Positions 10,152 to 56,950 of a stretch of DNA of 64,000 bases are shown here, one piece after another. Every line of letters starts with the position of its first letter. Within the stretch, counting starts at the first letter, position 1. Where the stretch lies: assembly GCA_965208755.1 (NCBI GenBank), contig OZ242353.1:1427772-1491771 (forward strand). The letters are read 5' to 3'. The notes below the pieces were generated by a model, which was not told the origin of the DNA, searched no databases, and worked only from the letters and a program-made list of their open reading frames with translations. The translations under genes and the position numbers were made by a program. The stretch is from Candidatus Multivorans sp. Its GTDB lineage: Bacteria > Acidobacteriota > Thermoanaerobaculia > Multivoradales > Multivoraceae.

Positions 10152-10162
10152 GTCGATCCTCC

Positions 10163-10726: not shown

Positions 10727-10761
10727 GGGTCAAAGACGGTCGGCAGCGTTGCGACTGGCGG

Positions 10762-11052
10762 TCAAGGGAAGGGGACGCCAAAGAGTCGCACAAGGATGGC
10801 GAACGTCATCGCCATGTTGATCCCCAGCACCCACTTGAGCGCGGCCACTTCGGACTTCAACGCACGAAGCTGACCCCCAACGACACCGATCTCGCCGATC
10901 AGGTCGGATCGCAGCACCGCGAGGTCCTTCTTCGTGGCGAAGCGGTCATCCGCCTGGTTGATCGCATCGATGATGACCTCAGCGTGGGCCGGCTTGATGC
11001 CAGCCCGCTCGAAGGCCCGATGGGTCGCGAGAGTGTCGATTCGACTAGTCAT
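10762..11052 (-). CDS. DUF1640-like small coiled-coil protein with C-terminal membrane anchor
   Basis: 96 aa; 'KKDLAVLRSDL..LRALKSEVAALKWVLGINMAMTFAILVRLFG' (coiled coil plus TM helix). Confidence 0.4.
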   Translation of the reverse strand: MTSRIDTLATHRAFERAGIKPAHAEVIIDAINQADDRFATKKDLAVLRSDLIGEIGVVGGQLRALKSEVAALKWVLGINMAMTFAILVRLFGVPFP

Positions 11053-37411: not shown

Positions 37412-39961
37412 ATGGCCCTGAAGAAGTCCCATCTCTACTCGTCCCTCTGGAAGAGCTGCGACGAACTCCGCGGCGGCATGGACGCCTCCCAGTACAAGGA
37501 CTACGTCCTGACGCTGCTGTTCATGAAGTACGTGTCCGACCGCTACGCCGACATGCCGGACGCGCTCGTCGTCGTGCCGGACGGCGGTGGCTTCGACGAC
37601 ATGATCGCCTGCAAGGGCGACAAGGAGATCGGGGATCGGCTGAACAAGATCATCGGCAGGCTCGCGGAGGCGAACGACCTGAAGGGAGTGATCGACCAGG
37701 CCGACTTCAACGACGAAGGCAAGCTCGGCGCAGGAAAGGAGATGGTCGACCGGCTCACGAAGCTGGTCGCGATCTTCGAGAACCTCGATCTGGGTGCCAA
37801 CCGGGCTGGGGGCGACGACCTACTCGGCGATGCCTACGAGTACTTGATGCGCCACTTCGCGACCGAGAGCGGGAAGAGCAAGGGTCAGTTCTACACCCCG
37901 GCCGAGGTCTCCCGCATCATGGCTCAGGTGATCGGCATCGGCCGCGCCCGCGAACGGCATCAGCCCACGGTCTTCGACCCGACCTGCGGCTCCGGCTCGC
38001 TCCTGCTCAAGGCCGCCGACGAGGCAGCCGTCGAAAACCTGGCGATCTACGGCCAAGAGAAGGACGTGGCGACCTGGGCCCTGGCGCGCATGAACATGAT
38101 CCTGCACGGGCACCCGACGGCCGAACTCGAACGCGGCAACACGCTCGCCGCTCCCGGATTCACGGACGACGCCGGGAACCTGAAGCGGTTCGACTTCGCC
38201 GTTGCGAATCCGCCATTCTCCGACAAGGCGTGGTCGAACGGCGTCCAGCTCGACGACGACCCCTTCCAACGCTTCGAGCCCGGCGTCCCTCCCGCAAAGA
38301 ACGGCGATTACGCCTATCTTCTGCACTTCATCCGGTCGCTCAGGACCGACGGGGCTGGCGCGATCATCCTCCCTCTTGGCGTCCTGTTCAGGGGGCATCG
38401 AGAAGCCGTCATCCGCCGGGTCCTCGTCCGTCGCGGCCTGATCTCCGGGATCATCGGCCTGCCGCCGAACCTCTTCTACGGCACCGGCATCCCCGCTTGC
38501 ATCGTGGTCATCGACAAGCAGAACGCGGCCGCGCGAACGGGCATCTTCCTCGTCGACGCGAGCCGGGGCTTCGCGAAGGACGGCGCGAAGAACCGCCTGC
38601 GCGAGCGCGACATTCACCGCATCGTAGACGTGTTCACGAACCGTCGCGAGGAGCCGCGCTACTCCCGAATGGTCCCGTTGGCCGAGATCGAGTCCGAGGC
38701 GAACGACTGCAACCTGAACATCTCCCGCTACATCGATTCGAGCAAGCCCGAGGACATCCATGACCTCGACGCCCACCTGAACGGCGGCATCCCGGAGCGG
38801 GACATCGACGCGCTCCAGCAGTACTGGAACGTCTTTCCGGGCCTCCGAGACGATCTCGTCGAGACCGTCGGACGACCAGACTACGTCCAACTGCGCGTCG
38901 CGCCAGAGAAGCTCCGCTCCGCCATCCTCGGCCACCGGGAGTACGAGAGCTTCGCCGAACGCGTCCGCGCCACCTTCGAGAGCTGGCGCGCGGCCCACGA
39001 GCCCGCGCTCAAGAGCATCGGCCCCGACACCCGCCCCGCGGATCTGATCCGCGACCTCTCCGAGGACGTGCTGACGAGGTTCGCCGACGTACCGTTGCTG
39101 GACCCGTACGACCCCTACCAGAGGCTGATGGACTACTGGGCCGAGGTCATGCAGGACGACGTCCACTTGATCGTCGCTGAAGGCTGGAAGAAGGCTGGCC
39201 GCGCGGTGCGTCTCGCAGAGAAGGGCGAGACCCCGGACCTGGCATTGAAGAACGGCCGGAAGACACTGAAGTACATCGCCGACCTGCTCCCCGCTTCGAT
39301 CCTAATCGCACGGTTCTTCCCCCCCCGAAGGTCCGAACTTGAGCTCCTTGAGGAGCGGCACGGTCAGGCGGAAGCCGAGCGCGCTGCGCTGGAGGAAGAA
39401 GAGGGCGGGGACGAGGGCGCTCTGGCTGGCCTTGAAGGCAAGAACGGCATCACCAAGGGGAACGTGCAGAATCGCGTCATGGTTCTTCGCGACGCGGCTC
39501 TGAAGTCGTTCGCGCTCGGGACGAGCCGCTACCGGCAGGCCGCCGCCATCAGAAAGACGACGTTCGGCACCAAGCCCTGGACGCGCGGAACCGAGGACCC
39601 GGATGGGCTGTTCAGGGAGCTCGACGCGCTACACGATTGGCTCCGGCACCACGCGGCAGAGACGAAGCTCAAGAAGGACCTGGGCGCGAGGCGAACAGAA
39701 CTCCAGAGCGCAACGTACTCAAGGTACGCCAGCCTGACCATGGGCGAAGTTAGGAGCCTGACCGTCCAAGACAAGTGGCTGAACAGTCTTCGCACCTGTG
39801 TCGATGTCGAGGTGGAAGCGATGTCCGGTCTACTCGCCGATCGCCTTGAACAACTGGCGAGCCGCTACGCAGAGCCTCTGCCGATGGTTGAACTCGACAC
39901 CGAAACCCTGGCCACCAAAGTCGGAGGTCATCTGACGCGGATGGGCCTGACGTGGGAGTGA
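37412..39961 (+). CDS. hsdM: Type I restriction-modification system methyltransferase subunit (long form)
   Basis: HsdM N-terminal domain 'LWKSCDELRG..YKDYVLTLLFMKYVSD'; motif I 'DPTCGSGSLL'; motif IV 'NPPF'. Confidence 0.85.
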   Translation: MALKKSHLYSSLWKSCDELRGGMDASQYKDYVLTLLFMKYVSDRYADMPDALVVVPDGGGFDDMIACKGDKEIGDRLNKIIGRLAEANDLKGVIDQADFNDEGKLGAGKEMVDRLTKLVAIFENLDLGANRAGGDDLLGDAYEYLMRHFATESGKSKGQFYTPAEVSRIMAQVIGIGRARERHQPTVFDPTCGSGSLLLKAADEAAVENLAIYGQEKDVATWALARMNMILHGHPTAELERGNTLAAPGFTDDAGNLKRFDFAVANPPFSDKAWSNGVQLDDDPFQRFEPGVPPAKNGDYAYLLHFIRSLRTDGAGAIILPLGVLFRGHREAVIRRVLVRRGLISGIIGLPPNLFYGTGIPACIVVIDKQNAAARTGIFLVDASRGFAKDGAKNRLRERDIHRIVDVFTNRREEPRYSRMVPLAEIESEANDCNLNISRYIDSSKPEDIHDLDAHLNGGIPERDIDALQQYWNVFPGLRDDLVETVGRPDYVQLRVAPEKLRSAILGHREYESFAERVRATFESWRAAHEPALKSIGPDTRPADLIRDLSEDVLTRFADVPLLDPYDPYQRLMDYWAEVMQDDVHLIVAEGWKKAGRAVRLAEKGETPDLALKNGRKTLKYIADLLPASILIARFFPPRRSELELLEERHGQAEAERAALEEEEGGDEGALAGLEGKNGITKGNVQNRVMVLRDAALKSFALGTSRYRQAAAIRKTTFGTKPWTRGTEDPDGLFRELDALHDWLRHHAAETKLKKDLGARRTELQSATYSRYASLTMGEVRSLTVQDKWLNSLRTCVDVEVEAMSGLLADRLEQLASRYAEPLPMVELDTETLATKVGGHLTRMGLTWE

Positions 39962-41178
39962 ACACGCCCCTAGGATGGCTGCTAGAACCAGTGGAGACGA
40001 AGGGCGATGTCACCACAGGCAAGGCGCTAGCCGCAAGAGCGCCCGGCAAGCAGCGCCCTTACCTGCGCACGAAGAACGTGTTCGACGGTCGTATCGTCAC
40101 CAACGACGTTCTGACGATGCCGATGACCGACGCCGAGTTCGAGCGCTATCGCGTCCTTCCTGGGGACGTTCTCCTCAACGAGGGACAGAGCCTCGAACTG
40201 GTCGGTCGTTGTGCGGTGTATCGGGACGAGAACGCGAAACCCTGTGCGATGCAGAATCAGCTGCTCCGCTTTCGCGCGCGGCCCGGTGTTTCCGCCGAGT
40301 TCGCTGCACATCTGTTTCGCTACTCGCAGCAGGAGGGTACGTTCGCCCGTATAGCCCTCCAAACAACATCTATCGCCCACCTTGGCGCGACACGCCTGGA
40401 GAAGCTGAAGCTACTCTGGCCTGAGCGGGAGGCCGAACAAGACGCCATCGCCGAGGCGCTCTGCGACATGGATCTGTTGATCGAGTCGCTGGCGACACTA
40501 ATCGCCAAAAAGCGGTCGGTCCGGCGCGGCGTCATGCAGCAGCTCTTCACCGGCCGGACTCGGCTTCCAGGGTTCGACGGAGCGTGGGAGTCAAGGCACG
40601 TCGGCGAACTCGCCGCAGTTTCGATGGGGCAATCGCCTCCTTCGACGTCATACAACACGGTCGGAGACGGACTTCCCCTCATTCAAGGAAAAGCCGATCT
40701 GGTCGGGCACACAACGTCTGCCCAGGTATGGACCACTCGCCCCGCCAAGCGCTGCTCGGAAGGCACCATCGTTCTGACGGTGCGGGCGCCTGTAGGCGCT
40801 GTCGCACGCGCACACGCCGAGGTTTGCCTAGGACGGGGCGTGTGTGGATTGAGCACTACTCTAGGGACGAGATTCCTGTACCTAGCGCTACAGCACGCCG
40901 AGTCGCGGTGGGCGAAAGTCCAGCAGGGAAGCACATTCCTTGCGGCAAATGCAGACCAAATCGCAGGCTTCGCCATCGATGTTCCGGCTGACCCCGCCGA
41001 GAGAACGGCCATCGCCGAAGTCCTCTCCGACATGGATAGCGAGCTCGAATCCCTGGAACAGCGTCTCGCGAAGACCCGCGCGATCAAGCAGGGCGCGATG
41101 CAACAACTCCTCACCGGCCGCATCCGGCTGCCACTCGACAGCGAGGGCCGTCACGACAAGGGCCACGCAGATGCCTGA
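39952..41178 (+). CDS. hsdS: Type I RM specificity subunit
   Basis: Two target-recognition domains separated by conserved coiled-coil repeats 'AIAEALCDMDLLIESLATLIAKKR..QQLFTGRTRLPGF' and 'AIAEVLSDMDSELESLEQRLAKTRAIKQGAMQQLLTGRIRLP'. Confidence 0.8.
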   Translation: MGVNTPLGWLLEPVETKGDVTTGKALAARAPGKQRPYLRTKNVFDGRIVTNDVLTMPMTDAEFERYRVLPGDVLLNEGQSLELVGRCAVYRDENAKPCAMQNQLLRFRARPGVSAEFAAHLFRYSQQEGTFARIALQTTSIAHLGATRLEKLKLLWPEREAEQDAIAEALCDMDLLIESLATLIAKKRSVRRGVMQQLFTGRTRLPGFDGAWESRHVGELAAVSMGQSPPSTSYNTVGDGLPLIQGKADLVGHTTSAQVWTTRPAKRCSEGTIVLTVRAPVGAVARAHAEVCLGRGVCGLSTTLGTRFLYLALQHAESRWAKVQQGSTFLAANADQIAGFAIDVPADPAERTAIAEVLSDMDSELESLEQRLAKTRAIKQGAMQQLLTGRIRLPLDSEGRHDKGHADA

Positions 41179-42586
41179 GTCCCAGACCAGGGAGTGGAAG
41201 CGATCCTGGCGAGACGAACACCTGAAGTGGATCTGCGGCTTCGCGAACGCCCAGGGCGGCGTGCTCGAGATCGGCAAGGATGATCGGGGCGAGGTCGTCG
41301 GCCTCAAGGAACCGCTCAGACTGCTTGAGGACATCCCGAACAAGGTCCAGTCCCTGCTCGGTATCGTCGCGGAAGTCGATCTGAGGTCGAAGTCGGGCAA
41401 GGAGTACCTGGAGATCGTGGTGGACCCTCACCCAAACCCGATCAGCTATCGGGGCGAGTTCCACTATCGCAGCGGCAGCACGAAGCAGGTTCTTCGGGGC
41501 GTAGCGCTGAGCCGCTTTCTGTTGCAGCGTTACGGGCGGACCTGGGACGACGTTCCGTCACCCGGCGTGGCGCTTGGCGACCTGGACGCGCGGAAACTGG
41601 AGGACTATCGCCGGCTGGGCGCAGGCAGCCAACGGTTGCCAGACAGCATCCTGCAGGACACCGACGACGCTGTGATCGACAAGCTCCAGTTGCGGGAAGC
41701 CGAGCTCCTGAAGCGGGCCGCGATCCTCCTTTTTCATCCGGCGCCCCAGCGATTCGTGGTGGATGCCTACGTCAAGATCGGCTACTTCCGGGGCTCGGAA
41801 CTTCTGTTCCAGGACGTCGTGGATGGCGACCTGTTTGGTCAGGTCGACCGGACGATGGACCTCCTTTACACGAAGTACACGCGGGGGCTGATCTCCTACA
41901 ACGGCATCTACCGCGTCGAGACGTTCCCGGTGCCGCGCGAGGCCATGAGGGAGGCGCTGATCAACGCCGTGATCCACCGCGACTACGCTAGGCCAACCAC
42001 GATTCAGATTCGCGTGTACGACGATCGGATCGCGATCTGGAACGCGGTCGACCTGCCTCCCGAGTGGGGCGAGAGCCAGCTCGCCCGGAAGCTGTCGTCG
42101 AAGCCGCACAACCCGCGCATCGCCTACTCGTTCTTCAGGGCCGGGTTGATCGAAGCATGGGGCCGAGGCATCGAGCGGATTCTCGATCTGTGTGAGGAGG
42201 CAGGGAACCCACAGCCTGTCTGGGAACTGGAACCAGGAGGCGAGGGTCTGTGGTTGAGATTCCCGTTTTCGGCGGCGTACCGGGCCGCCGACACTGCGAA
42301 CCGCGCAGCAACCAGTGAAACTCGCCCAGACGGCGAGACTGCCCCGATCGCTACCCCGACTACCCCGGCCACTACCCCGACTACCCCGGCCACTACCCCG
42401 ATGTCCGCGAGAGAGGGCATCCTGGCCTTGTTGAAAACCGATCCGCAGTTGACCCAGCGCGAACTCGCCGAACGAGTGGGCCTGACAAGGAACGGGGTCA
42501 AGTACCACATCAAAGTGCTGAAGGCCGCCGGCCTCATCCGCCGGATTGGCTCGTCGACGGCGGGTCGATGGGACGTGCTGAAGTGA
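41171..42586 (+). CDS. AlbA_2 (divergent AAA) + HATPase_c_4-like + C-terminal wHTH protein (RecG-like putative transcriptional regulator) embedded in the RM operon
   Basis: N-terminal 'REWKRSW..E.LKWICGFANAQGGVLEIGKDD' (AlbA_2); C-terminal 'LLKTDPQLTQRELAERVGLTRNGVKYHIKVLKAAGLIRR' HTH; Thr/Pro repeat linker. Confidence 0.6.
   Translation: MPESQTREWKRSWRDEHLKWICGFANAQGGVLEIGKDDRGEVVGLKEPLRLLEDIPNKVQSLLGIVAEVDLRSKSGKEYLEIVVDPHPNPISYRGEFHYRSGSTKQVLRGVALSRFLLQRYGRTWDDVPSPGVALGDLDARKLEDYRRLGAGSQRLPDSILQDTDDAVIDKLQLREAELLKRAAILLFHPAPQRFVVDAYVKIGYFRGSELLFQDVVDGDLFGQVDRTMDLLYTKYTRGLISYNGIYRVETFPVPREAMREALINAVIHRDYARPTTIQIRVYDDRIAIWNAVDLPPEWGESQLARKLSSKPHNPRIAYSFFRAGLIEAWGRGIERILDLCEEAGNPQPVWELEPGGEGLWLRFPFSAAYRAADTANRAATSETRPDGETAPIATPTTPATTPTTPATTPMSAREGILALLKTDPQLTQRELAERVGLTRNGVKYHIKVLKAAGLIRRIGSSTAGRWDVLK
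42351..42400. repeat. 21-bp tandem repeat (about 2.4 copies) encoding a P-T-T-P-A-T-T-P linker
   Basis: 'ctaccccgactaccccggcca' x2 plus a partial copy, inside the AlbA_2/HTH gene. Confidence 0.7.
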
Positions 42587-42608: not shown

Positions 42609-44253
42609 ATGACCTCCGTCGGCCAGCGGGAAAGCCGTACCCAGAAGCGCGTGATCGTCCGCCTCCAGGCTCTCGGCTACGAGTACCTGGGCCACTGGAA
42701 GAACCGCGAGGCCAACGCGAACGTCGAAGAAGACCGCCTACGGGCCTGGCTCGCGAATCGACACCTGACGGACGGGCTCGCGGGGAAAGCGCTCGAGAAA
42801 CTCCGCGGGGCCGCGGAGTTCGGAGGCGCTCGGACGCTCTACGAAGCGAACCGCGAGGTCTACAACCTCCTCAGGTACGGAGTAAAGGTCAGGCCGGAAG
42901 TCGGCGAGAACCACGAGACGGTCTGGCTGATCGACTGGGAGAATCCCGATCGCAACGACTTCGCCGTCGCCGAGGAAGTGACGGTCACCGGGAAGCGGAA
43001 CAAGCGGCCGGACATCGTGTTCTACGTGAACGGCATCGCCCTCGCCGTCATGGAACTCAAGCGGTCCACGGTTTCCGTAGCCGAGGGGATCAGGCAGAAC
43101 CTGGACAGCCAGAAGAAGGAGTTCATCCAGCACTTCTTCTCCACGGTGCAGCTCGTGCTGGCTGGAAACGAGACGGAGGGCCTCCGTTACGCCGCGATCG
43201 GTACCCCCGAGAAGCAGTGGCTGCGCTGGAAGGAGGCCGGGGCGGCGCCGTCGGCAGGGTACAACCCCTTGCCCGAGGAACTGGGTCAACTCTGCAGCAA
43301 GCGACGACTCCTGGAAGTGATCCACGACTTCGTCGTCTTCGACGCCGGGACGAAGAAGATCTGCCGCCCCAACCAGTACTTCGGCGTGAAGGCGTCCCAA
43401 GAGCGGATTCTGAAGCGCGAGGGCGGCATTCTCTGGCACACGCAGGGCAGTGGCAAGAGCCTGACGATGGTGTGGCTGGCGAAGTGGATACGGGAGAACG
43501 TGGGAGATTCCCGCGTTCTCATCGTTACCGATCGCAAGGAGCTCGACGAGCAGATCGAGATGGTCTTCGAGGGAGTCAACGAGCACATCCGGCGAACGAC
43601 AAGCGGCGCCGACCTAGTCAAGGTCCTGGACGCGGGAGTGGACGACCTGGCCTGCTCGCTGGTCCACAAGTTCGGGGCTTCGGAGGAAGGCGACGTCGGC
43701 CGCTACCAGGACGAGCTTGAAGAACACGTGCCGGCGGGCTTCAACCCGCCGGGCACGTTCTTCGTCTTCGTCGACGAGTGCCACCGCACCCAGTCCGGCA
43801 AGCTGCACGCCGCGATGAAGAAGCTGCTGCCCGGCGCCACTCTCATCGGCTTCACGGGCACCCCGCTTCTCAGGGCGGACAAGCGACGCTCAATCGAGAC
43901 ATTCGGCCCCTACATCCACACCTACAAGTACGACGAAGCTGTGCAAGACGGCGTAGTGCTGGACCTGCGCTACGAAGCGCGCGACATCGATCAGCGGATC
44001 TCCGCGCCGGAGAAGGTCGATCAGTGGTTCGAGGCGCACACGCGCGAACTAACGGACGTGGCCAAGGCCCAGCTCAAGCAACGTTGGGGCACGATGCAGG
44101 CGCTGCGGTCCGCAAGAGATCGGCTAGGGAAGATCGTCGCGGACATCCTCATGGACATGGGAACCCGGGACCGCTTGAAGAGCGGTCGCGGAAACGTCCT
44201 GCTTGTCTCCGACAGCATCTACTCGGCCTGTCGGTTCTTCGAGATGTTCGAAC
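42609..44253 (+). pseudogene. hsdR: hsdR (type I restriction enzyme R subunit), N-terminal fragment, interrupted by IS4-family insertion
   Basis: PD-(D/E)xK 'DIVFYVNGIALAVMELKRS'; helicase motif I 'TQGSGKS'; motif II 'DECHR'. The open frame runs into the IS inverted repeat and stops at 44279. Confidence 0.8.
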
Positions 44254-45530
44254 CACTGCTGTCCCACAAACCGGGTTGAGAAAAGGGCCTGAGTCGTCCG
44301 GTGCTGTAAGGTTGGTCTTGGTCGAAAGTCCAACTACAGCAAGGAGATCCAGGCTCATGGCGCATCATAACACCGTGCTCGGACAGTTGCTCAGGCTGGT
44401 GTCGAGACATGAGTTCGAGCGGGACGCCCGGAGGCATCACAAGGGGAGGAAGCTCCGTTCCATGAGCCGGTGGAGCCAGTTCGCGGCGATGGCGATGGCG
44501 CAGTTGTCGGGGCGGTGCAGCCTGCGGGACGTCGTCTCGAATCTGGAAGCCCAGAGACGGAAGCTCTACCATCTCGGCGTCGGTCGGGTCGCGCGGTCCT
44601 CTCTGGCGCGGGTGAACGAGGAGCAGCCTCACGAGCTCTTCGAGTTGCAGTTCAAGCGCCTTCTGGACCGCTGCCGAGGCTTGGCGCCCGGCCACGGGTT
44701 CCGGTTCAAGAATCCGCTCGTGTCCCTGGACGCGACGTACATCGACCTGTGCCTCTCGTTGTTTCCCTGGGCGAAGTACGGCAAGAGCAAAGGGGCGATC
44801 AAGGTCCACGTCGGTCTCGACCACGGCGGGAATCTGCCGTCCTTCCTGAGCGTGACGGACGGGAAGGGGTCCGACATCGACGTGGCGCGGACGCTGCGCT
44901 TGCCAGTGGGGAGCATCGTCGCCGCGGACCGGTTGTACCAGGACTTCAGTTGGTTGAGATCCCTTGACGAGCAAGGGGTTTTCCTGGTCACGCGGCTCAA
45001 GCGGGGAGTCCGGTACGCGGTGCGGGAGCGCCGCTCGTACGCGCCCGGCCGCGGCGTGACCTCGGACCAGCTGATCGAGCTGACGAGCAGGAAGGGCCGG
45101 AAGGACTGCCCGATTCCGCTGCGGAGGGTCGGCTATCGCGACGCCGCGACCGGCAAGCACTACGTGTTCCTCACCAACAACTTCGCGCTCGCGCCGAGGA
45201 CCATCGCGGACATCTACAAGGCGCGCTGGCAGGTCGAGCTCTTCTTCAAGTGGATCAAGCATAACCTCCGGATCAAGAGCTTCCTCGGCACTTCCCGCAA
45301 CGCCGTGCTGACGCAGATCTGGATCGCCATGTGCGTCCACCTCCTCCTCGCCTACCTGAAATTCTCCAATCGCCTCAAGTGGACGCTCAGCGAGATCCTC
45401 CGTCTGCTCCAACTGAATCTCTTCGAACGACGCCCACTCAATGACCTGTTACAGACACAACGCGACCCGCCGCGCCCGAGAAACGATCAACTGCAACTCG
45501 CCCTGCCCTGAAGTTTGTGGGACAGCAGTG
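44254..45530 (+). mobile_element. IS4-family insertion sequence (1277 bp) with 18-bp perfect terminal inverted repeats and 9-bp target-site duplication
   Basis: Left inverted repeat 'cactgctgtcccacaaac' (44254-44271) equals the reverse complement of 45513-45530. Direct repeats 'tgttcgaac' at 44245-44253 and 45531-45539. Confidence 0.8.
44357..45511 (+). CDS. IS4-family DDE transposase
   Basis: 384 aa; ATG preceded by AAGGAG; C-terminal 'YKARWQVELFFKWIKHNL' (Y-x2-R-x3-E-x6-K signature of the IS4 family). Confidence 0.8.
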   Translation: MAHHNTVLGQLLRLVSRHEFERDARRHHKGRKLRSMSRWSQFAAMAMAQLSGRCSLRDVVSNLEAQRRKLYHLGVGRVARSSLARVNEEQPHELFELQFKRLLDRCRGLAPGHGFRFKNPLVSLDATYIDLCLSLFPWAKYGKSKGAIKVHVGLDHGGNLPSFLSVTDGKGSDIDVARTLRLPVGSIVAADRLYQDFSWLRSLDEQGVFLVTRLKRGVRYAVRERRSYAPGRGVTSDQLIELTSRKGRKDCPIPLRRVGYRDAATGKHYVFLTNNFALAPRTIADIYKARWQVELFFKWIKHNLRIKSFLGTSRNAVLTQIWIAMCVHLLLAYLKFSNRLKWTLSEILRLLQLNLFERRPLNDLLQTQRDPPRPRNDQLQLALP

Positions 45531-47726: not shown

Positions 47727-48204
47727 CTGCTCAACAATCCTCGCGGCCCGGATCTCCTGGCCGACCTGCAGGCCCTGGCTAGTCGGGCGCACGGCCTCCA
47801 CGGGTCTCTCACCAACCGTAGCAACTGAGCCCATGGCGCAAAAACTTCGACGGCTTCACGCAGGGAAGTCCCGCATCGTTCGGGAGCTCTTCATCGATAC
47901 AGCGGACGACAACTACATCACTGCCCGTTGGTGTTTCGCGGAAGGGATGAATATCGACTACTCTTGGCTCGCCGTTCACACGCTTGAAAAGTACATGAAA
48001 GCGGCTCTGCTGTTGAACGGGAGATCAGGCAAACGCGGCCGCGACGAGGATGGGAACTGCAGGTGCATTGGTCATGACATCAGGCTTCTCTATAAGAACA
48101 TCGAGCGCATTTCTTCGGAGCTCCTGCCGGCCAGACTAGAGCAGCCGGCAGAACTCAGGGTCGATTCTTGGCGTGACGAAACGCCCGCCGGCTTTCTTGA
48201 GAGG

Positions 48205-49541
48205 TGCTTCAGGTTTGTGTGTGGGCACGGAGTGACTCGGGCGCCATGTCGAGTCCGCCGAGATGGAAGTAGATGGCGAGGCGGAAGTGCTCTCGATTTC
48301 GATAGCCGTTCGCTCTTCGCTTGATTTTCTGGATCGTCGCGTTGATCCCCTCGGCGTTGGCGTTGGAGATACCGGACACGGCGGCGTTGATGACGGCGTC
48401 CCAGTGGCCCCTGATCATCCTGGCCACTTTCCTGATCGGTTCCAGCCGACTGCGGATCGCCCAGTCGTACCAGTTCTGCCAGCGCCGCTCGGCCCAGCCG
48501 CGGCGCGCGTAGCCCCACGAGTCCCGCGCCATCTCCTTGATCGCCCAGGCCCGCGCCACGCGAAGGTGACTCGCGCGAAGAGCAGCGAAGCGCCGCTGCT
48601 GCGGGCGGGTCATTCGCCCACTCCCCATCAACCACAGGTAGCGGCTCCGCTTCAGACCCGGGTCCCCTGCTTCGAGCAACTCCCGCTGCTCGGCGCGTCG
48701 AACCAGGTCCACGGCGTGATTCAGGTGCGCGACGATGTGGAATCGGTCATGAACGATGGCCGCGTCCGTGTACTTCTCCACCGAGGAAATGTAGGCCGGC
48801 CACATGTCCATCGCCACCTGCTCGATGCCAGCGCAGCCCGTCTCGCCCAACTCCTCGAAGTAGCCGTCAATGGCGGCCCGGCCACGACCGTCGGCCACGT
48901 GAGTCACCACGCCGCGCTCCAGATCGTTGACCACCGTCACGTACTCGTGGCGCCGCCGAAACGACGTCTCGTCCACGCCCAGCAACCGAGGCGGCTCCAA
49001 CTGGCGCCGCGCGAGACCCCGCTCCACCGCGCGACGCTGAATCCCCGCCGCCTGATCCCAACTCAGACCCATGCGGCGCGCCACCGCGTGAACGCTCGCC
49101 TCGCGAAGCCATTCGATGGCCTCTGCCTCGAACAGCGCCGTGAACCGCGAACTCTCGTCCGCCCAAGGCACCTTCAACTGGTGGACGCCATGCTCCGAGC
49201 AGAGCACCCGAGGAACCTCCGCGTGAACCCGCGTCTGGTGCTGCATCGTGTCCAGATGACGCCAGCGGCGATGCCGGCTGTCGTAGCCCGGACAAGCCAC
49301 GCCGCACTCCGGGCAGAGAGCCTCCCCATTGTGCTCGACGTGGATCTCCACCGTCCCGCCTACCACCGGACCGCGACGGCGAGGATGCGGCTCGTCCATC
49401 CGAAGCACCACCGCACGCACACGCCAAGGCGGCTTGATACCCAACAACCTCTCGAACGTCCTGGCACTCTTCATCCCGCCAGTCTAAACCCGCAAGCCAG
49501 CCACCAAACCCGCAACCACCCACACAACAGCCTGAAGACCC
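48205..49541 (-). mobile_element. ISL3-family insertion sequence (about 1.34 kb) with imperfect terminal inverted repeats and 8-10-bp target duplication
   Basis: Inverted repeats 'tgcttcaggtttgtgtgtgggc' (48205-) and the reverse complement of 'cccacacaacagcctgaagac' (-49539). Direct repeats 't(c)ttgagagg' at 48195-48204 and 49542-49551. Confidence 0.65.
48209..49474 (-). CDS. ISL3-family transposase
   Basis: 421 aa; N-terminal zinc-finger-like 'CPECGVACPGYDSRHRRWRH'; DDE region 'LLGVDETSFRRRHEYVTVV', 'IEQVAMDMWPAY'; C-terminal 'NAEGINATIQKIKRRANGYRNREHF'. Confidence 0.8.
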   Translation of the reverse strand: MKSARTFERLLGIKPPWRVRAVVLRMDEPHPRRRGPVVGGTVEIHVEHNGEALCPECGVACPGYDSRHRRWRHLDTMQHQTRVHAEVPRVLCSEHGVHQLKVPWADESSRFTALFEAEAIEWLREASVHAVARRMGLSWDQAAGIQRRAVERGLARRQLEPPRLLGVDETSFRRRHEYVTVVNDLERGVVTHVADGRGRAAIDGYFEELGETGCAGIEQVAMDMWPAYISSVEKYTDAAIVHDRFHIVAHLNHAVDLVRRAEQRELLEAGDPGLKRSRYLWLMGSGRMTRPQQRRFAALRASHLRVARAWAIKEMARDSWGYARRGWAERRWQNWYDWAIRSRLEPIRKVARMIRGHWDAVINAAVSGISNANAEGINATIQKIKRRANGYRNREHFRLAIYFHLGGLDMAPESLRAHTQT

Positions 49542-50154
49542 TCTTGAGAGGCTCTATCGTACCGGCAACGCCCACAACCGATACCAGATCTTCGGCTTCT
49601 TGCGCCACCAGGAGGATCTCTTCAAGCTTGATGCGATGGCCTTCGCATTGCGCCGGCTTTGTGTGCCGCTGGATGCTCACTTCCTGGGCAGGCGGCGGCC
49701 GGGCAGGAGGAACCAGACGCATCGCGAAGTGCTGATCGAGGAACCAAGAACGTGGGTCGTGTCCTTGGACTGCAATCTCGAAAGAACGGTGAATGGCAAT
49801 CGCGGCGAACAGCTACGTGACGTCCTTCTGAACCTCAACGTGCCCTTCGGTCCTAGTGATTTTTCTCATCGCGATATGCCAAGCGTGATGGCTTGGCGTG
49901 GCTCTGTCATCGGGCGCTTGATTCTGAAACCGCTCGAGCAGGCGTCGACTAGCGACGAGGCAGCGCACGCGGTGGAACTCTGCGCTTGGTCGCTCCAGAA
50001 CATCGTCCTTCCTCGCGAGGTGAGGAAGCAACTTCGGGAAGCCCTCGGTCCGCAGGCAGCGTCTAGCAGCTAGGGCCTGTTCACACTAGCAGGTAAATCC
50101 GTGTATCCTCCGTTGCGTCGTCTTGAACGTCGTAAACGGAGGAGGATCAAGGAC

Positions 50155-50918
50155 ATGGAACTCACGGAGGAGCAGTACGAGCGGATCGCGCCGCTGCTTC
50201 CGAGGCAGCGGGGCAACGTGAGACTCCCGAATCTGCAAGTGCTCAACGCGATTTTGTACGTGGCGGAGCACGGCTGCAAGTGGCGGGGGCTTCCGAAACG
50301 GTTCGGCAACTGGCACACCGTCTACGTGCGGATGAATCGTTGGGCGAAGAGCGGTGTGCTGGACCGCGTGTTCGAGTACCTGCAGCGAGAGCAGATCATC
50401 CGCATCAAGGTGGAAGCGCTGGGACTGGACAGCACCAGCGTGAAGGTCCACCCGGACGGCACGGGCGCAGAAAAAAAAACGGCCCGCAAGCGATCGGCAA
50501 GTCGCGTGGCGGCTGGACCACCAAGATTCATCTGGTTGCCGCGAATGCTCGAACGGCAGTCGCCTTCTCTCTCTCCCCCGGCCAAGCGCACGACGCGCCG
50601 CAGGGCCGCGAGCTCCTGAGAAGCATGGCGGCGGAACAGCCGACAGCCAATCTGGCGCTGGTGATGGACCGCGCGTACGAGGACGACGCAACCCGCCAGT
50701 TGGCCCTGGACTTGGGCTTTGTGCCGGTCGTGCCGCCGAAGAGCAACCGTCTCAACCCCTGGGAGTACGATCGGGAGATGTACAAGCGGCGCAACGAGGT
50801 CGAGCGCCTCTTCCGTCGCCTGAAGGGGTTTCGTCGTATCTTCTCTCGATTCGAGAAACTCGACGTGATCTTCCTCGGCTTCGTCGTCTTCGTGCTCATC
50901 GTCGATGCGCTGAGATAG
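50155..50918 (+). CDS. IS5/IS427-group transposase produced as two overlapping frames (orfA 50155-about 50480; orfB in the -1 frame to 50918), joined by programmed -1 frameshift
   Basis: orfA 'MELTEEQYERIAPLLP..' (HTH); orfB 'LVMDRAYEDD..NEVERLFRRLKGFRRI' (DDE). The frames overlap at an A9 run. Confidence 0.75.
50471..50479 (+). other. A9 slippery run: candidate programmed -1 ribosomal frameshift site of the IS427-group transposase
   Basis: 'gcagaaaaaaaaacggcc' lies at the orfA/orfB overlap; orfB is in the -1 frame relative to orfA. Confidence 0.5.
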
Positions 50919-51102: not shown

Positions 51103-52563
51103 ATGAACGACTCCGAATCAAACACGACCGACACTCTCATCACCGAACTGCAAGCCGCAGTGGGCGAGGACGTGGTCCTCACCGGCGAGGCGGTCACGGC
51201 TCGGGCTGGCGACGGCTCGGGCACCGTTCCATGCGCGGCCCGGGCGGTGCTTCGGCCACGCACGACGGAGCAGCTCTCGGCAGCCTTGGCGGTCTGCCAT
51301 CGCGCCAACCAGCCGGTGGTGCCGCAGGGCGGGCTGACCGGTCTCGTCGGCGGCGGTGTCGCCGGTGATCTGGAGGTCGCCATTACCCTGGAACGGATGA
51401 CCGCGATCGAAGAGATCGATCCCGTTGGCCGGACGATGACGGTCCAGGCGGGGGCGGCGCTGCAGAGTATTCAGGAGGCCGCCGAAGCGGAGGGTCTGCT
51501 CTTCCCGCTCGACCTCGGCGCCCGCGGCTCCTGCACGATCGGCGGCAACGTCGCCACGAACGCCGGAGGCAACCGGACGATCCGCTACGGCATGACCCGC
51601 GATTCGGTGCTCGGCCTGGAGGCCGTGCTCGCCGACGGCACGGTGCTCTCGAGTCTGAACAAGATGGTCAAGAACAACGCGGGCTATGACCTGAAACACC
51701 TCTTCGTCGGTTCCGAGGGCACCCTGGGAATCGTCACCCGCGTCGTCCTGCGCCTGGAGCGGCGGCCCCGCAGCCACGACTGCGCTCTGCTGGCGGTTCC
51801 GGGGTTCACCGAAGTAGTCGAGTTGTTGCGCCGGCTGGAAGAGGAGATCGGCGGCTCGATGAGCGCCTTCGAGGTCATGTGGCGCGAGTTCTACGAGCTG
51901 GTGACGGGACCACAGGCGAGGACGGCACCCCCGATTCCGCACGGCGACCCCTACTACGTGCTGGTCGAGTCGCTCGGTACGCGGCCCGAGCAGGACGCTG
52001 CACAGTTCGAGGAGGCGCTCGGCGAGTGCATGGAGGCCGGTCTGATCGGCGACGCAGTGCTCGGTCGGTCCAAGGTGGAGCGCGACGAGATCTGGGCGCT
52101 GCGCGACGACGTTGAACAGCTCAACCACCTGGCCCCCATCTTCACCTTCGACGTCAGCCTGCGGATCGCCGACATGAAGGCCTACGTAGCGAACATCAAG
52201 ACGGCCCTGGCGGACCGGTGGCCGGACAGCCGGTGCGTGGTCTTCGGCCATCTCGGCGACGGCAACCTTCACGTCGTAGTCTCTGTCGGTGATGGCTCCC
52301 CGGAGGCACGCGTTGGCGTCGAGGAGATCGTCTACGGACACCTTGAGCCGATCAACGGGTCGGTGTCCGCGGAGCACGGCATCGGCTTCGAGAAACGGGC
52401 TCACTTAGGCCGAAGCCGCACGGCGGAGGAGATCGGTCTCATGAAGACTCTGAAGAGGACCCTCGACCCGAAGGGCATCCTCAATCCTGGAAGAGTGTTC
52501 GAAGCGGAGGGCGCGCCCGAAACGCGCACGCCCACGAACGCCAGCGTACGGCTGCCGGGATAG
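51103..52563 (+). CDS. FAD-binding oxidase/dehydrogenase (FAD_binding_4; D-lactate dehydrogenase / GlcD-like)
   Basis: 'VVPQGGLTGLVGGGV' FAD-binding region; 'HLGDGNLHVVV'; 'AEHGIGFEKRAHL'. Confidence 0.7.
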   Translation: MNDSESNTTDTLITELQAAVGEDVVLTGEAVTARAGDGSGTVPCAARAVLRPRTTEQLSAALAVCHRANQPVVPQGGLTGLVGGGVAGDLEVAITLERMTAIEEIDPVGRTMTVQAGAALQSIQEAAEAEGLLFPLDLGARGSCTIGGNVATNAGGNRTIRYGMTRDSVLGLEAVLADGTVLSSLNKMVKNNAGYDLKHLFVGSEGTLGIVTRVVLRLERRPRSHDCALLAVPGFTEVVELLRRLEEEIGGSMSAFEVMWREFYELVTGPQARTAPPIPHGDPYYVLVESLGTRPEQDAAQFEEALGECMEAGLIGDAVLGRSKVERDEIWALRDDVEQLNHLAPIFTFDVSLRIADMKAYVANIKTALADRWPDSRCVVFGHLGDGNLHVVVSVGDGSPEARVGVEEIVYGHLEPINGSVSAEHGIGFEKRAHLGRSRTAEEIGLMKTLKRTLDPKGILNPGRVFEAEGAPETRTPTNASVRLPG

Positions 52564-53257
52564 ACCGGCCTTCCGGCTCACCCGGAGGCCGGCAGAAGCG
52601 CCCGCACACCCTCGGCGACCCGCCCAAATGGGCGAAAGTGCTGCTCGCCCGTCGCGAGCTTGATCGCGAAGCGGTGTACGAAATCAAGTGCTGGGGCGCC
52701 CCGAGCGTGTCTCCGCGCTTCTCCGGCCGCGTGCTAGAGCCGGCCGTCGATACTCCCGACTAGCCGCTACCTCCGCACGGTCAAGTTCTTTTGACTCAGA
52801 CCCCTGCACCAGATAGCGTCGCGCTCGCCGCTCAACCACTGGAGGCCCTAGGTCGCGCCAATCCGTCCGCCCCCGTCAATCCAAGCCCCGCCATCACAGT
52901 CGACCCCGCCACCACCTCTCTGGCTTAGGCCTCTGAACCCAAGTCGCGGAACACGTCAAGGGCCCCGATCTTCCCCTGGGTCCTACTGGCATTCCTGTCG
53001 CGCAGCCGCGGCGGCCACGTGCGCCCTGCTGCCTCGGCCTCTACAACCGTTCACACATCACACGCACTCCTCCAAACCCCTGTAACCCCACCATAGACAA
53101 GCAGCGCCCCAATGCCATCTCCACCCAACGACATCCCCAACCTCTCTTCGAGAAACTCGACAACCGGCTCAGTCTCGACAAGGAAGAGGGCGACCATGCG
53201 TACTTCACTTCGCTCTCACTCAAGCTTGAGTACCTCACTAAGGTCCTAGTCTCCGGA

Positions 53258-55783
53258 GTGGTCGCAGTTGTAGCCGACGACGTCGATCGTCACCGCTACT
53301 CCCTTGAGTACCGCCTCGTTCGCGCAGACTCTCTCGGCACCTGGACTGAAGTGCTCGATCAGGCCCTTTCCGGGCCACCCGCCCAGTTCCTTCTTACCGA
53401 AGCGCGGCCCTTCATCAGAGATCTCACCCAACGAGTGAGTGCAGCCGACTGGCGCCACAGCGCCGTCGAGTGCCTAGCAACAGCAGCCAGAGCAGTAGGT
53501 GTCGAGTACCGGCTGCCCCACAAGGTGGCCTTGCGGGAGTTCTTCCACCTCGGCGTGCGTTTGCGAAACCGGAGCCGCGCGCACGGCGCCCCAACGGCCG
53601 CCCAATACAGCGCCGCCTGCCTACCCCTTGCCCAAGCCTTAGACCTAGTCGTGGACCGGACCGAGCTCTTCCAGCTACCTTGGGTACACCTTCATCGCAA
53701 CCTCTCCGGCAAGTACCGCGTCTCGCCCTTGTTGAACTCTTCGTCGGCGTTTGACTACTTGAAGCGCACCGCCACCGAGCACCACGCCAACGGTGTGTAC
53801 ATCGGACTCAATTCCGACGGCCGGCCAGCTCGTCCACTCGCGGTGAGGTTGATCTTCACCGACCCTAATCTCCTTGAGATCCGCCTTCCCAACGGGAACT
53901 TCAAGAACGATCAGTTCGAAGTCCTATCCTATGTCAGCAATACAGACGAGCGTCAAGATGGATCCCTTTGGACTGTGCCGCCAAGTCGGCTCCCCAAGAG
54001 CGAAACGGAGGGCGGAGCGACCCTCGAACCCCTCGGAAGCATCTTCGCCAACGTCCCACCTCAAGATCGCACCTACATCCGGCGCCCGACGCTTGAACGA
54101 CAAATCCGTGATGAACTCAAGGAAGTCAGCAGACATCGCATCCTGACACTGACCGGACCGGGCGGCATCGGAAAGACGAGCGTCGCGATAGCCGCCATAC
54201 GGGACTTGTCCCAGACACACGACCCGCCGTATGACACCGTCCTCTGGATTAGCGCCAGAGATGTAGATCTTCTTGAGGCCGGCCCTAAGCCCGTCACTCA
54301 GGCCGTCTTGTCGCAAGATGATATCTCCCGCCTAGCGGTGGAGCGCCTAGAGCCACGTCAACGACACGACTCCGATTTCTCTCCTCAGAGCTTCTTTGAG
54401 GAGTGTCTTCGCAAAGGTGGAGCGGGTCCGACGCTGTTCGTTCTGGACAACTTCGAGACCATACAAGACCCCGCCGACACCTTCAGATGGCTAGACGCTC
54501 ACATCCGCTCACCGAACAAGGTGCTGATCACGACCCGCTTCAGGGACTTTCGCGGCGACTACTGGGTAGAAGTGGGTGGTATGTCAGACGATGAAGCCGG
54601 TGCACTTGTGGATCAACACGCCAAATCGCTCGGCGTTTTCAGACTACTGAACCGCAACTACAAGGAAGAGCTTATTCGAGAGTCCGGCGGGCATCCGTAC
54701 GTGCTCAAGATCCTCCTTGGCGAAGTGGCCAAAGAGCAACGCGCCGTGAAGCCGCGACGGGCGGTGGCGACTGCGGACCGCCATCTTGGCGCCCTGTTCA
54801 AGCGGACCTTTGACGCACTAAGCCCCGCAGGCCAGCGCGTCTTCTTGCTCCTCTGCAGTTGGCGTGCCGTCGTGCCAGAGATCGCCATCGAAGCCGTTTC
54901 GCTTCGTCCGGGCACCGAGCGCTTCGACGTGTCCCGCGCTCTAGATGAACTTCGAAGGTTCTCCCTTGTTGAGTACCTTGAGCCAGAAGTCGAAGAAGCA
55001 GACTCCGATGCAGCTGCGTTTGTGGCCGTCCCGATGGCGGCCGCCATTTTCGGACGGAGCGAACTGAAAGTCAGCACCTTTAGAGTCGCGATTGAGGAGG
55101 ACCGCAAGATCCTCATGGAGTTTGGGCCGGGTCGAGCAGAGGACGTCCGCCGCGGAGTCCTTCCTCGTATTGAGAGTCTCTACCAGACTGTGGCCAGAAG
55201 AGCGGACGACACTCCAGAGACCCTTGAGCAGTACCTGCCGGTTCTGGAGTATCTGGCCTCCAGAGTACCCCAAGCGTACCGACGTCTAGCTGTCCTAGTG
55301 AGCGAAGTTAGCCACAGCGATCTGGCAGTCGAACGAGCCAAGGGCTACTTGAGGAGTTTCCTGAGATCTGCCGATGTAGCGGAACTGCTAGATGGATGGT
55401 TACAGTTGGCGGACCTTTGTGCTGCGAGCGGCGACGCGCTGGGCGAGGTCCATGCCCTGTGCGAGGCGGCCCTTCTTCCCACATCCGGAAAGGAGGACGT
55501 TGGGCGGCTGGCGAACCGACTCAATCAGCGCGTCCGTGATCTCAAGGAACGGAACATCGAGACCGCGTGGTCAGGGGAAGTTCGCGAGCTACTTGGCCGC
55601 GTGATCGAGAAGATGGAGAAGGAACTCGGCGTGCTTTCGGCGACTGACTGTTCTCGCTTGGCGTGGCTCTATCTCAACGTGGGAAACTCCGATCGGGCAC
55701 TCTCCGTCGCCAGGATTGGAGCCCGGCGCGAGCCAACCAACGAGCATTGCCAGAACCTCCTCCGAAGGCTCCAGGGCCTATAG
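53258..55783 (+). CDS. STAND (NB-ARC-like) P-loop NTPase with unrecognised N-terminal domain and C-terminal helical repeat region; candidate antiviral STAND/NLR-like defence protein
   Basis: Walker A 'LTLTGPGGIGKTSVA', Walker B 'LFVLDNFE', NB-ARC GxP-like 'SGGHPYVLKILL', then about 300 aa of helical repeats. The N-terminal region has 'FFHLGVRLRNRSRAHGAP' (RNxxxHG, HEPN-like). The frame is open about 320 nt upstream (to a stop near 52935) without ATG/GTG/TTG. GC is lower than in the flanks. Confidence 0.6.
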   Translation: MVAVVADDVDRHRYSLEYRLVRADSLGTWTEVLDQALSGPPAQFLLTEARPFIRDLTQRVSAADWRHSAVECLATAARAVGVEYRLPHKVALREFFHLGVRLRNRSRAHGAPTAAQYSAACLPLAQALDLVVDRTELFQLPWVHLHRNLSGKYRVSPLLNSSSAFDYLKRTATEHHANGVYIGLNSDGRPARPLAVRLIFTDPNLLEIRLPNGNFKNDQFEVLSYVSNTDERQDGSLWTVPPSRLPKSETEGGATLEPLGSIFANVPPQDRTYIRRPTLERQIRDELKEVSRHRILTLTGPGGIGKTSVAIAAIRDLSQTHDPPYDTVLWISARDVDLLEAGPKPVTQAVLSQDDISRLAVERLEPRQRHDSDFSPQSFFEECLRKGGAGPTLFVLDNFETIQDPADTFRWLDAHIRSPNKVLITTRFRDFRGDYWVEVGGMSDDEAGALVDQHAKSLGVFRLLNRNYKEELIRESGGHPYVLKILLGEVAKEQRAVKPRRAVATADRHLGALFKRTFDALSPAGQRVFLLLCSWRAVVPEIAIEAVSLRPGTERFDVSRALDELRRFSLVEYLEPEVEEADSDAAAFVAVPMAAAIFGRSELKVSTFRVAIEEDRKILMEFGPGRAEDVRRGVLPRIESLYQTVARRADDTPETLEQYLPVLEYLASRVPQAYRRLAVLVSEVSHSDLAVERAKGYLRSFLRSADVAELLDGWLQLADLCAASGDALGEVHALCEAALLPTSGKEDVGRLANRLNQRVRDLKERNIETAWSGEVRELLGRVIEKMEKELGVLSATDCSRLAWLYLNVGNSDRALSVARIGARREPTNEHCQNLLRRLQGL

Positions 55784-55924: not shown

Positions 55925-56950
55925 TCAGGCGTACTCGGGCGCGAGATCCTCGCGCAGCCGCTCGAGCAGTTCCTTCGTCTTCACGATGCCTGCATCGGCG
56001 GCCATCGGACCCTCGAACTCGATGCCGACCCAGCCGCGATAGCCGGCGTCGAGGACGATCCGCATCATCTGTGCGTAGTCGGTCGTCGTCTCGTCGCCGT
56101 TCTCGTCGAAGCGGTAGCTCTTGGCGCTGACGGCGCGGGCGAAGGGCATCAGCTCGGTGACGCCCTGGTACCTGTCGTACCACTCTTCGGGCTCCTCGGA
56201 GACCCGGAAGTTGCCGAAGTCGGGCAGGGATCCGATGCGGGGGTGATCGACCATGGCGAGCGTGCCTGCCAGCCACTCGCCGTTGCTCGAGATGCCGCCG
56301 TGGTTCTCGACCAGGACGTCGATGTCATAGCCGTCGGCGTACTCGCACAACTGGCGCAGGCCGTCCGCCGCCAGCTTCTGCTGCTCCTCGAAGGACCCCG
56401 CGCTGGCGGCGTTGACCCGCACCGAGTGGCAGCCGAGGAAGGCGGCCGCCTCGACCCACTTGTGGTGGTTCTCGACCGTCTGGGCCCGCTCCGCCGCGTC
56501 CGGAGCACCGATCGATCCCTCCGCGTCGCACATGATGAGCAGACTCGTCACACCCTCGCCGTCGCAGCGCGACTTGAGGTCGGCCAGGTACTCCTGGTCG
56601 CGGGCGCGGTCGAAGAAGAAGGTGTTCACGTACTCCACGGCTTCGATGCCCAGGCCGCGGGCGCGGGCCGGGAAGTCCAGGTGATCGAGTTCGCCCTGGT
56701 AGAGCGAGCGCGGGTCGGTCTGGAGGACCTCGCCGAAGGAGCCGTCGGCCAGGGCACTCAGCGACGGCCCGAACAGCTCGCGGAAGTAGGACCACTCGGC
56801 CAGCGAGATGCGGTAGAGGGGCTCGACCGTGGCCTCGGCGGCCGGCGTCGCCTCTTCTCCGGAACCGGCGTCGCCCTCCGTGCAGCCGGCAGCGGCAGCG
56901 GCGCCCAGCACGGCGCCGGTTTGCAGAAAACGTCTGCGGTCGATCTTCAT
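55925..56950 (-). CDS. Sugar phosphate isomerase/epimerase (xylose-isomerase-like TIM barrel) with Tat signal
   Basis: 'MKIDRRRFLQTGAVLGAAAAAGC' Tat/lipobox; 'VLVENHGG' motif of the AP-endonuclease-2/TIM family. Confidence 0.6.
   Translation of the reverse strand: MKIDRRRFLQTGAVLGAAAAAGCTEGDAGSGEEATPAAEATVEPLYRISLAEWSYFRELFGPSLSALADGSFGEVLQTDPRSLYQGELDHLDFPARARGLGIEAVEYVNTFFFDRARDQEYLADLKSRCDGEGVTSLLIMCDAEGSIGAPDAAERAQTVENHHKWVEAAAFLGCHSVRVNAASAGSFEEQQKLAADGLRQLCEYADGYDIDVLVENHGGISSNGEWLAGTLAMVDHPRIGSLPDFGNFRVSEEPEEWYDRYQGVTELMPFARAVSAKSYRFDENGDETTTDYAQMMRIVLDAGYRGWVGIEFEGPMAADAGIVKTKELLERLREDLAPEYA

Follow-up and report, generated by a model that had tools for sequence, protein, structure and literature searches.

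What does a long reading frame without a start codon encode, and is it still a gene? The question is raised by positions 52937-55783 (plus strand) of a 64,000-nucleotide stretch of DNA from Candidatus Multivorans sp. (Acidobacteriota), hereafter the window. An earlier note, made from the sequence alone, described the frame as a candidate novel Avs/NLR-like antiviral STAND NTPase whose N-terminal domain carries an HEPN-like motif. We report here that the start codon is only apparently missing, owing to the loss of one nucleotide at codon 10 in comparison with four orthologs, and that the protein belongs to the STAND NTPases of the NB-ARC type, arranged in the order putative effector, NOD and repeats. 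On balance, we lean towards viewing it as a single-gene, horizontally mobile family of Avs-like abortive-infection sensors that would activate an N-terminal HEPN-like nuclease, with the window copy carrying the 1-nt deletion.

The frame follows a TGA codon (52934-52936) and is open from 52937 to the stop codon at 55781-55783. When it was re-read from the sequence, the first in-frame ATG, GTG or TTG was the GTG at 53258, and the 107 codons without a start that the earlier note had counted upstream of it were indeed there. The motifs quoted for the protein were also all found (RNRSRAHG at 53564-53587, GPGGIGKT at 54155-54178, LFVLDNFE at 54434-54457 and GHPY at 54689-54700). Homologs detected in a search of 5.8 billion proteins span 99% of the extended frame; the stretch upstream of GTG 53258 is therefore coding. 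Four orthologs, among them P0002 (84% identity, locus L001), P0003 (73%, L002) and P0121 (>90%, L086), start at an ATG that aligns with window positions 53112-53114. This ATG is invariant in the alignments with the three orthologous loci and, in the window, lies one base out of frame with the long open reading frame. DNA alignments against the same loci have a single-column gap at codon 10. At this point the window has AA (53139-53140), and AAA (Lys10) is present in L086, a contig of 91% identity taken from Logan, a collection of assemblies of public sequencing runs. The corresponding segments are ATCCCCAAACC in L086 and ATCCCCAACC at 53132-53141 of the window. The N-terminus of P0121, which is an intact close relative, is MPSPRNDIPKPLFEK; translation of the window from ATG 53112 begins MPSPPNDIPN... 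and ends after 45 codons at a TAG (53247-53249). The 5' part of the locus is thus laid out as follows, all on the plus strand.

52564..53111, plus strand: 548-nt intergenic leader from the FAD (flavin adenine dinucleotide)-oxidase gene to the ATG, with ~90% identity to L086 and with indels
53112..53114, plus strand: true ATG start, out of frame by one base (ortholog alignments and the start of P0121)
53139..53140, plus strand: frameshift site, 1-nt deletion (single-column gap in DNA alignments)

Other explanations of the frame have to be weighed against a genuine deletion. The earlier note suggested a non-canonical start, a 5' truncation or a still longer N-terminus; a further reading of this kind is a truncated protein made from GTG 53258. 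No stop codon interrupts the 107 codons that precede this GTG, and an in-frame ATC is present at 53117. However, all orthologs start at the homolog of ATG 53112, exactly one base differs at codon 10, and a product initiated at GTG 53258 would be without the first 39 residues of the helical domain described below (49 of the intact protein), including the invariant E30 and K34. There is also no slippery heptamer at the site for programmed -1 frameshifting. We consider these start-site explanations very improbable. Programmed frameshifting itself was ruled out, as direct reading of the sequence found no slippery heptamer and the orthologs are unshifted.

Two readings of the deletion are then left: the gene was inactivated very recently, or the assembly is wrong at this base. 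An error, such as a homopolymer miscall in a long-read metagenome-assembled genome, would leave the gene intact and functional in the organism; we regard this as quite possible, short of probable. The lost base falls in a short A run beside a C4 run, CCCCAA(A)CC, and many of the related loci come from chromosome-level metagenome assemblies, presumably long-read ones. The ratio of nonsynonymous to synonymous substitution rates (dN/dS) between the window copy and L086 is 0.08, with no sign of relaxed constraint, which means that any inactivation must be very recent. Against an error, 14 other genes compared with syntenic L002 (~19 kb of coding sequence) contain no frameshift at all. Genuine inactivations also occur in the same region, where an IS4-family element interrupts hsdR and ISL3 a neighboring gene, and decayed copies of the STAND gene itself exist in related genomes (only residues 1-275 in L032; truncations in L021, L034 and L075). 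Unless the missing base is an assembly error, the window copy is inactive, which we take to be the probable case. The public gene call for the exact sequence, P0001 (810 aa), is truncated even beyond GTG 53258 and is an artefact of the frameshift; in annotation, the locus should be flagged as frameshifted or as a pseudogene.

To describe the encoded protein, we number residues from the Pro codon at 53141, which 10 codons from 53112 precede. Two AlphaFold2 models were used, one of the N-terminal 326 aa (predicted local distance difference test score, pLDDT, 81.5; predicted template modeling score, pTM, 0.80) and one of the full length (pLDDT 82.9). Conservation was assessed in 97 full-length family representatives that are 30-73% identical to the window protein (median 37%). 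The following domains were delineated.

53141..53674, plus strand: helical, HEPN-like domain, residues 1-178 (AlphaFold2)
53564..53587, plus strand: candidate HEPN catalytic motif RNRSRAHG, R142-N143-x4-H148-G149 (conservation and position in the AlphaFold2 model)
53681..53959, plus strand: small beta domain, residues 181-273 (seven strands in the AlphaFold2 models)
53978..54085, plus strand: linker, residues 280-315 (pLDDT from <50 to ~70)
54086..54640, plus strand: NB-ARC nucleotide-binding domain, residues 316-500, alpha/beta (Walker A, Walker B, sensor-1)
54641..55075, plus strand: helical and winged-helix domains of the NOD module, residues 501-645 (AlphaFold2 secondary structure)
55076..55783, plus strand: C-terminal TPR-like repeats, residues 646-880, plus the stop codon (twelve helices, pLDDT 85-95)

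The central part of the protein is readily identified. It scores 35.1 bits with Pfam PF00931 (NB-ARC), above the curated threshold of 23.5 (E 1e-8), and covers positions 6-209 of the 248 in the profile; this match, together with the effector-NOD-repeat order, bears out the earlier STAND assignment. The Walker A motif GPGGIGKT and the Walker B motif LFVLD436 are conserved in at least 93% of the 97 members, as are T464 and R466 of the TTR that supplies the sensor-1 arginine (54530-54538) and the GHPY that forms the GxP motif (G517-H-P-Y); T465 of TTR is invariant in a closer homolog set. The nucleotide-binding, helical and winged-helix domains occur in this order, and 240-290 residues of the NOD module align to Apaf-1, CED-4 and MalT. 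The repeats at the C-terminus, which have weak Pfam TPR_14 and TPR_7 matches, are presumed to be the sensor. The helical repeats proposed earlier are thus real, but they extend over ~235 aa after the winged helix in the AlphaFold2 model and not over ~300 aa. Similarly, the ~270-aa domain that had been placed before the NTPase is a module of ~325 aa consisting of two domains and a linker, the extension upstream of the GTG being coding.

In the helical domain, positions conserved in at least 93% of the representatives are E30, K34, Y53, G66, W68, G78, W104, R142, N143, H148 and G149. The beta domain has the conserved motifs WVxLHRNLSGKYRV and LPNGN; no structural match to it was found above generic helical hits, and neither this domain nor the conserved linker has assignable relatives. 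At the same threshold S287, T289, N304, P306, Y312 and R315 are conserved in the linker. Disorder is predicted for this segment (RLPxSETEG...GNxFxNxPP), although few parts of the family are as well conserved; it may serve in autoinhibition, in interactions or as a site of modification.

Is the N-terminal helical domain an HEPN domain? The R-N-x4-H-G motif was present in 120/120 close homologs and in at least 93% of the 97 diverse members, and was invariant in 42-97 diverse members. R142-x4-H148, with the polar residue N143 after the arginine, agrees with the HEPN motif pattern R-x(4-6)-H. According to the published description of HEPN domains, Rx4-6H is located at the end of core helix 3 and the start of the loop to helix 4, inserts occur between helices 2 and 3, and the N-terminal helices contain a conserved acidic residue (PMC3710099). 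In the AlphaFold2 models, RNR closes helix 132-146, H148 is in the following loop and a helix at 153-173 comes next. Helices 79-118, between the N-terminal helices and the motif helix, can be read as an HEPN insert, and the invariant E30 is in the long N-terminal helix 18-42. The predicted motif position, insert and acidic residue therefore all agree with this description, and the HEPN-like motif noticed earlier is both invariant across the family and located where an HEPN motif would be expected in the predicted fold.

The earlier statement that the domain could not be assigned holds: no Pfam, NCBIfam, PADLOC or PDB sequence family matches the N-terminal region. There was no Pfam match, including none to the HEPN clan (27 members, E up to 10), and the NCBIfam and PADLOC searches were empty. 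Sequence-profile searches of PDB with three alignments returned P-loop or chance matches only, and Foldseek searches of PDB with the N-terminal model gave nothing at E <0.3. Comparison of the helical-domain profile by hhalign with one Abi_C protein and with a 120-member Abi_C profile was not significant; a local alignment to the latter pairs the two motifs, but with a probability of only 0.45%. An Abi_C HEPN protein encoded beside the homolog in L003 has LRNKAGTLSHG where the window protein has LRNRSRAHG. Overall, HEPN is the best available hypothesis for the helical domain, at roughly even odds, and membership is not established. A further, speculative and in our view improbable proposal is that the whole ~325-aa N-terminal module (helical R-N-x4-H-G domain, beta domain and linker) is an unclassified effector. 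It would then be either an enzyme unrelated to HEPN or a very divergent HEPN lineage in which the beta domain is built in to bind the substrate, and it would be obligatorily coupled to an NB-ARC switch whose TPR sensor is unusually small. The family would in that case be a widespread compact NLR that kills by a new chemistry and ranges from Streptomyces and Ralstonia to Acidobacteriota.

The family is large and widely distributed. The search of 5.8 billion proteins yielded >1000 homologs, most of them 870-890 aa long. When 1.84 billion cluster representatives (50% clustering) were scanned exhaustively with HMMER, 561 proteins had the N-terminal module at E up to 1e-3. Of the 150 best, nearly all full-length proteins were 820-960 aa with the module at the N-terminus, and three longer members had only extra TPRs; the module is therefore not shuffled among architectures. 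Loci were found in Acidobacteriota, Chloroflexota (Dehalococcoidia), Alpha-, Beta- and Gammaproteobacteria, Planctomycetota, Verrucomicrobiota, Bacteroidota, Gemmatimonadota, Latescibacterota, Actinomycetota (Streptomyces, Micromonospora) and others. A homolog (39% identity) is also encoded on seven megaplasmids of Ralstonia solanacearum. Broken or truncated copies occur in L032, L021, L034 and L075, and about 4/52 loci with full flanks are disrupted. The early designation of the protein as novel consequently survives in part: more than 1000 homologs exist and HEPN-STAND-TPR fusions were described in 2013 (PMC3710099), but the N-terminal module is unmatched.

Two members deserve separate mention. 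In R. solanacearum Po82, megaplasmid NC_017575.1 (positions 128250-130805; L088) encodes an intact 877-aa homolog for which the plasmid gene table has no feature. In L032, from Candidatus Multivorans sp. and at the same chromosomal site as the window gene, positions 10001-10825 encode residues 1-275 only and continue into unrelated sequence.

Base composition and divergence set the gene apart from its surroundings. Its G+C content is 0.598, compared with 0.671 (FAD oxidase), 0.685 and 0.683 in flanking genes, so that the composition well below the flanks (0.67-0.69) noted earlier is confirmed; at third codon positions the values are 0.68 for the gene and 0.84 for the flanks. The STAND gene forms its own 3.2-kb low-G+C island. 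Identity to L002 is 73% for the STAND protein, as against 87-97% for flanking proteins and 64% for HsdS. The synonymous substitution rate (dS) against L002 is 2.1 for the STAND gene and 0.2-0.75 for the flanks (3-10 times lower), and dN/dS of the STAND gene is 0.07-0.09 and even across domains, indicative of purifying selection. The excess divergence from L002 is thus mostly synonymous. High dS with low, even dN/dS points to replacement by a diverged allele at a fixed, conserved site, and not to fast protein evolution or diversifying selection on the sensor. Fast evolution specific to the sensor was ruled out, as both identity and dN/dS are even across domains.

We also examined the genes adjacent to homologs, as the earlier note had proposed; homologs often adjoin mobile-element and defense genes. 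Within +/-4 kb of 32 loci, raw counts of the neighbor families most often recognized were four phage integrases, three rve transposases, two IS66 elements, three HsdR, two N6_Mtase, two YhcG/DUF1016 nucleases, two HerA, two NERD, two AAA_21/AriA-like ATPases and two reverse transcriptases, together with ordinary metabolic genes. Being raw counts, these numbers are suggestive of an enrichment of defense and mobile-element genes. For example, the homolog in L003 is accompanied by IS21, McrBC and a type I restriction-modification system with Abi_C, and those in L084 and L085 lie in integrase-DUF429 islands with MvaI/BcnI, Vsr plus a C5-methylase, or GmrSD. We detected no partner gene that is kept across loci: the upstream genes of L003, L084 and L085 are unrelated, and no neighbor family occurs in more than 4/16 loci. 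The lack of a conserved neighbor indicates a single-gene unit.

L084 (5115-9742) and L085 (4149-9776), which are from unrelated genomes, resemble each other in that a tyrosine integrase gene (Arm-DNA-bind_3/Phage_int_M) and a DUF429 gene precede the homolog by a few kb. The likeness hints that the family travels on integrative islands of a common type.

A mechanism can be proposed by analogy with Avs, Apaf-1 and plant NLRs. The TPR-like repeats would hold the protein as an ADP-bound monomer until, during infection, they recognize a ligand that arises from it, probably a phage protein. Ligand binding would free the ADP-locked NOD, and nucleotide exchange would lead to ATP-dependent oligomerization through NB-ARC. 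This would bring N-terminal domains together, with pairs of R142/N143/H148, along with E30 and K34, forming composite HEPN-type RNase centers; cleavage of cellular or phage RNA by these centers would abort the infection. The beta domain and linker may hold the substrate or keep the nuclease inactive at rest. In DARNA and many other HEPN nucleases the active site forms across the dimer interface (bioRxiv 10.64898/2026.02.22.705581), so that oligomerization would be expected to switch on RNA cleavage.

Several observations weigh against such an immune function. Unlike in many Avs families, the N-terminal module is not exchanged for other effectors, and it could be an integral non-catalytic part of the protein. 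The repeat region (~235 aa) is short compared with characterized Avs sensors of at least 400 aa (PMC13581612). No match to Avs, bNACHT or any other system was found in PADLOC-DB 2.0, which covers systems known in 2023 and does not include Avs7-21; the best hit (E 0.012) was Cas3b over the P-loop. No homolog was found in phage genomes, and the only plasmid records are the seven R. solanacearum megaplasmids. In some settings defense genes are absent: the Ralstonia locus has GGDEF and transporter genes, and the immediate neighbors of the window gene are metabolic. The principal alternative is that the protein is a STAND signaling or housekeeping ATPase with no immune role, in which the N-terminal module would be a non-catalytic sensor, adaptor or nucleic-acid-binding domain. 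The fixed architecture without effector swapping and the strong purifying selection, even over all domains, keep this alternative alive, as do the lack of a significant HEPN match, the non-defense character of some neighborhoods and the conserved chromosomal position in three related genomes. However, the protein has no DNA-binding or other output domain, and its invariant polar residues (E, K, R, N and H) are typical of catalysis. In addition, the gene is patchy across phyla and atypical in G+C content, repeatedly adjoins integrases, transposases and restriction systems, and is often decayed. We judge a non-immune role unlikely, and tend to favor the abortive-infection sensor.

How does the family relate to known systems? 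A known defense family was ruled out within PADLOC and NCBIfam, both of which were without a match. With Avs1-5 and Avs7-21 (PMC13581612; PMC11564622) the window family shares, as modeled, a tripartite single-protein layout of putative effector, NTPase and sensor; unlike in Avs, its NTPase is closer to the NB-ARC/Apaf-1 type, its repeats amount to only ~235 aa and its N-terminal module is fixed and not modular. It differs from Apaf-1, CED-4 and the plant NB-ARC NLRs (ZAR1, NRC) in being bacterial, in having an N-terminus that is not CARD, CC (coiled coil) or TIR, and in a sensor that is TPR-like and not WD40 or LRR (leucine-rich repeat). HEPN-STAND-TPR(-S1) fusions, such as Npun_F6454, MED222_16016 and Desac_1927, were catalogued in 2013 and predicted to be conflict systems (PMC3710099). 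These proteins share with the layout proposed here an N-terminal HEPN-type domain, a STAND ATPase and TPRs. By their description, however, their domain is a Swt1-like HEPN recognizable by profiles, whereas the window domain has no Pfam HEPN match and is followed by an extra beta domain. The HEPN RNases activated by oligomerization, i.e., DARNA/PD-T7-3, ApeA, Abi_C/AbiJ and Csm6, are without an NTPase, and the window family shows no significant sequence-profile similarity to them and no PADLOC match.

A 2026 census distinguished 589 STAND clades, 198 of them associated with defense (PMC13581612), and the sensor of the window family is below the 400-aa cut-off used there for sensor clustering. 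The family is a single-protein STAND/NLR-like defense candidate and not a new category; an uncharacterized STAND family is an incremental addition in 2026. Its putative effector module is absent from Pfam, PADLOC 2.0 and solved structures, as judged by sequence searches and Foldseek. Should the family consist of immune sensors, it would add a compact (~880 aa), highly conserved NB-ARC-type bacterial NLR and, if the proposed mechanism is true, a clear example of a dimer-dependent nuclease that is assembled by an NTPase. Members are present in culturable, tractable hosts (Ralstonia solanacearum, Streptomyces, Micromonospora, Chromohalobacter and Thioalkalivibrio), which makes the trigger and RNase hypotheses directly testable.

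Finally, we consider the surroundings of the gene in the window. The order is FAD-linked oxidase (51103-52563), STAND gene, Tat (twin-arginine translocation)-signal xylose-isomerase-like protein (55931-56950, minus strand) and M24 peptidase; it is kept in L001 and L002 and partly in L032. The gene had been described as sitting in a defense island rich in insertion sequences, but the high-G+C FAD-oxidase gene lies between it and the cluster of insertion sequences and restriction-modification genes. The 548-nt leader is unusually long, is conserved in close relatives only and not in more distant orthologs; no promoter-like, terminator-like or Rfam match was found around the gene, the leader (52564-53111) included. 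The cluster upstream contains the following features.

37412-39961: hsdM, type I restriction-modification operon, upstream of the STAND gene
39952-41178: hsdS, type I restriction-modification operon
40940-42586: Schlafen/AlbA_2 + HATPase_c_4 + winged-helix-turn-helix gene (best match 41171-42583), between hsdS and hsdR, 95% identity in L002
42609-46987: hsdR, split by an IS4-family insertion (transposase frame 43778-45511, DDE_Tnp_1 + DUF4372)
47833-50070: 296-aa gene split by an ISL3-family element (transposase 48209-49474, minus strand), intact in L002
50101-50918: IS5-family element with a two-frame transposase (DUF4096 50101-50619, DDE 50280-50918)

The two halves of hsdR correspond, with 92-97% identity, to residues 1-548 and 546-1030 of HsdR from L002, where the gene is intact. 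Three insertion sequences are located within 7 kb, in addition to the frameshifted STAND gene. With its hsdR split by an insertion sequence, a second split gene and the frameshifted STAND gene, the wider region is a defense neighborhood in decay. HsdS is 64% identical to its L002 counterpart, as against 92-97% for neighboring genes, which fits swapping of target-recognition domains.

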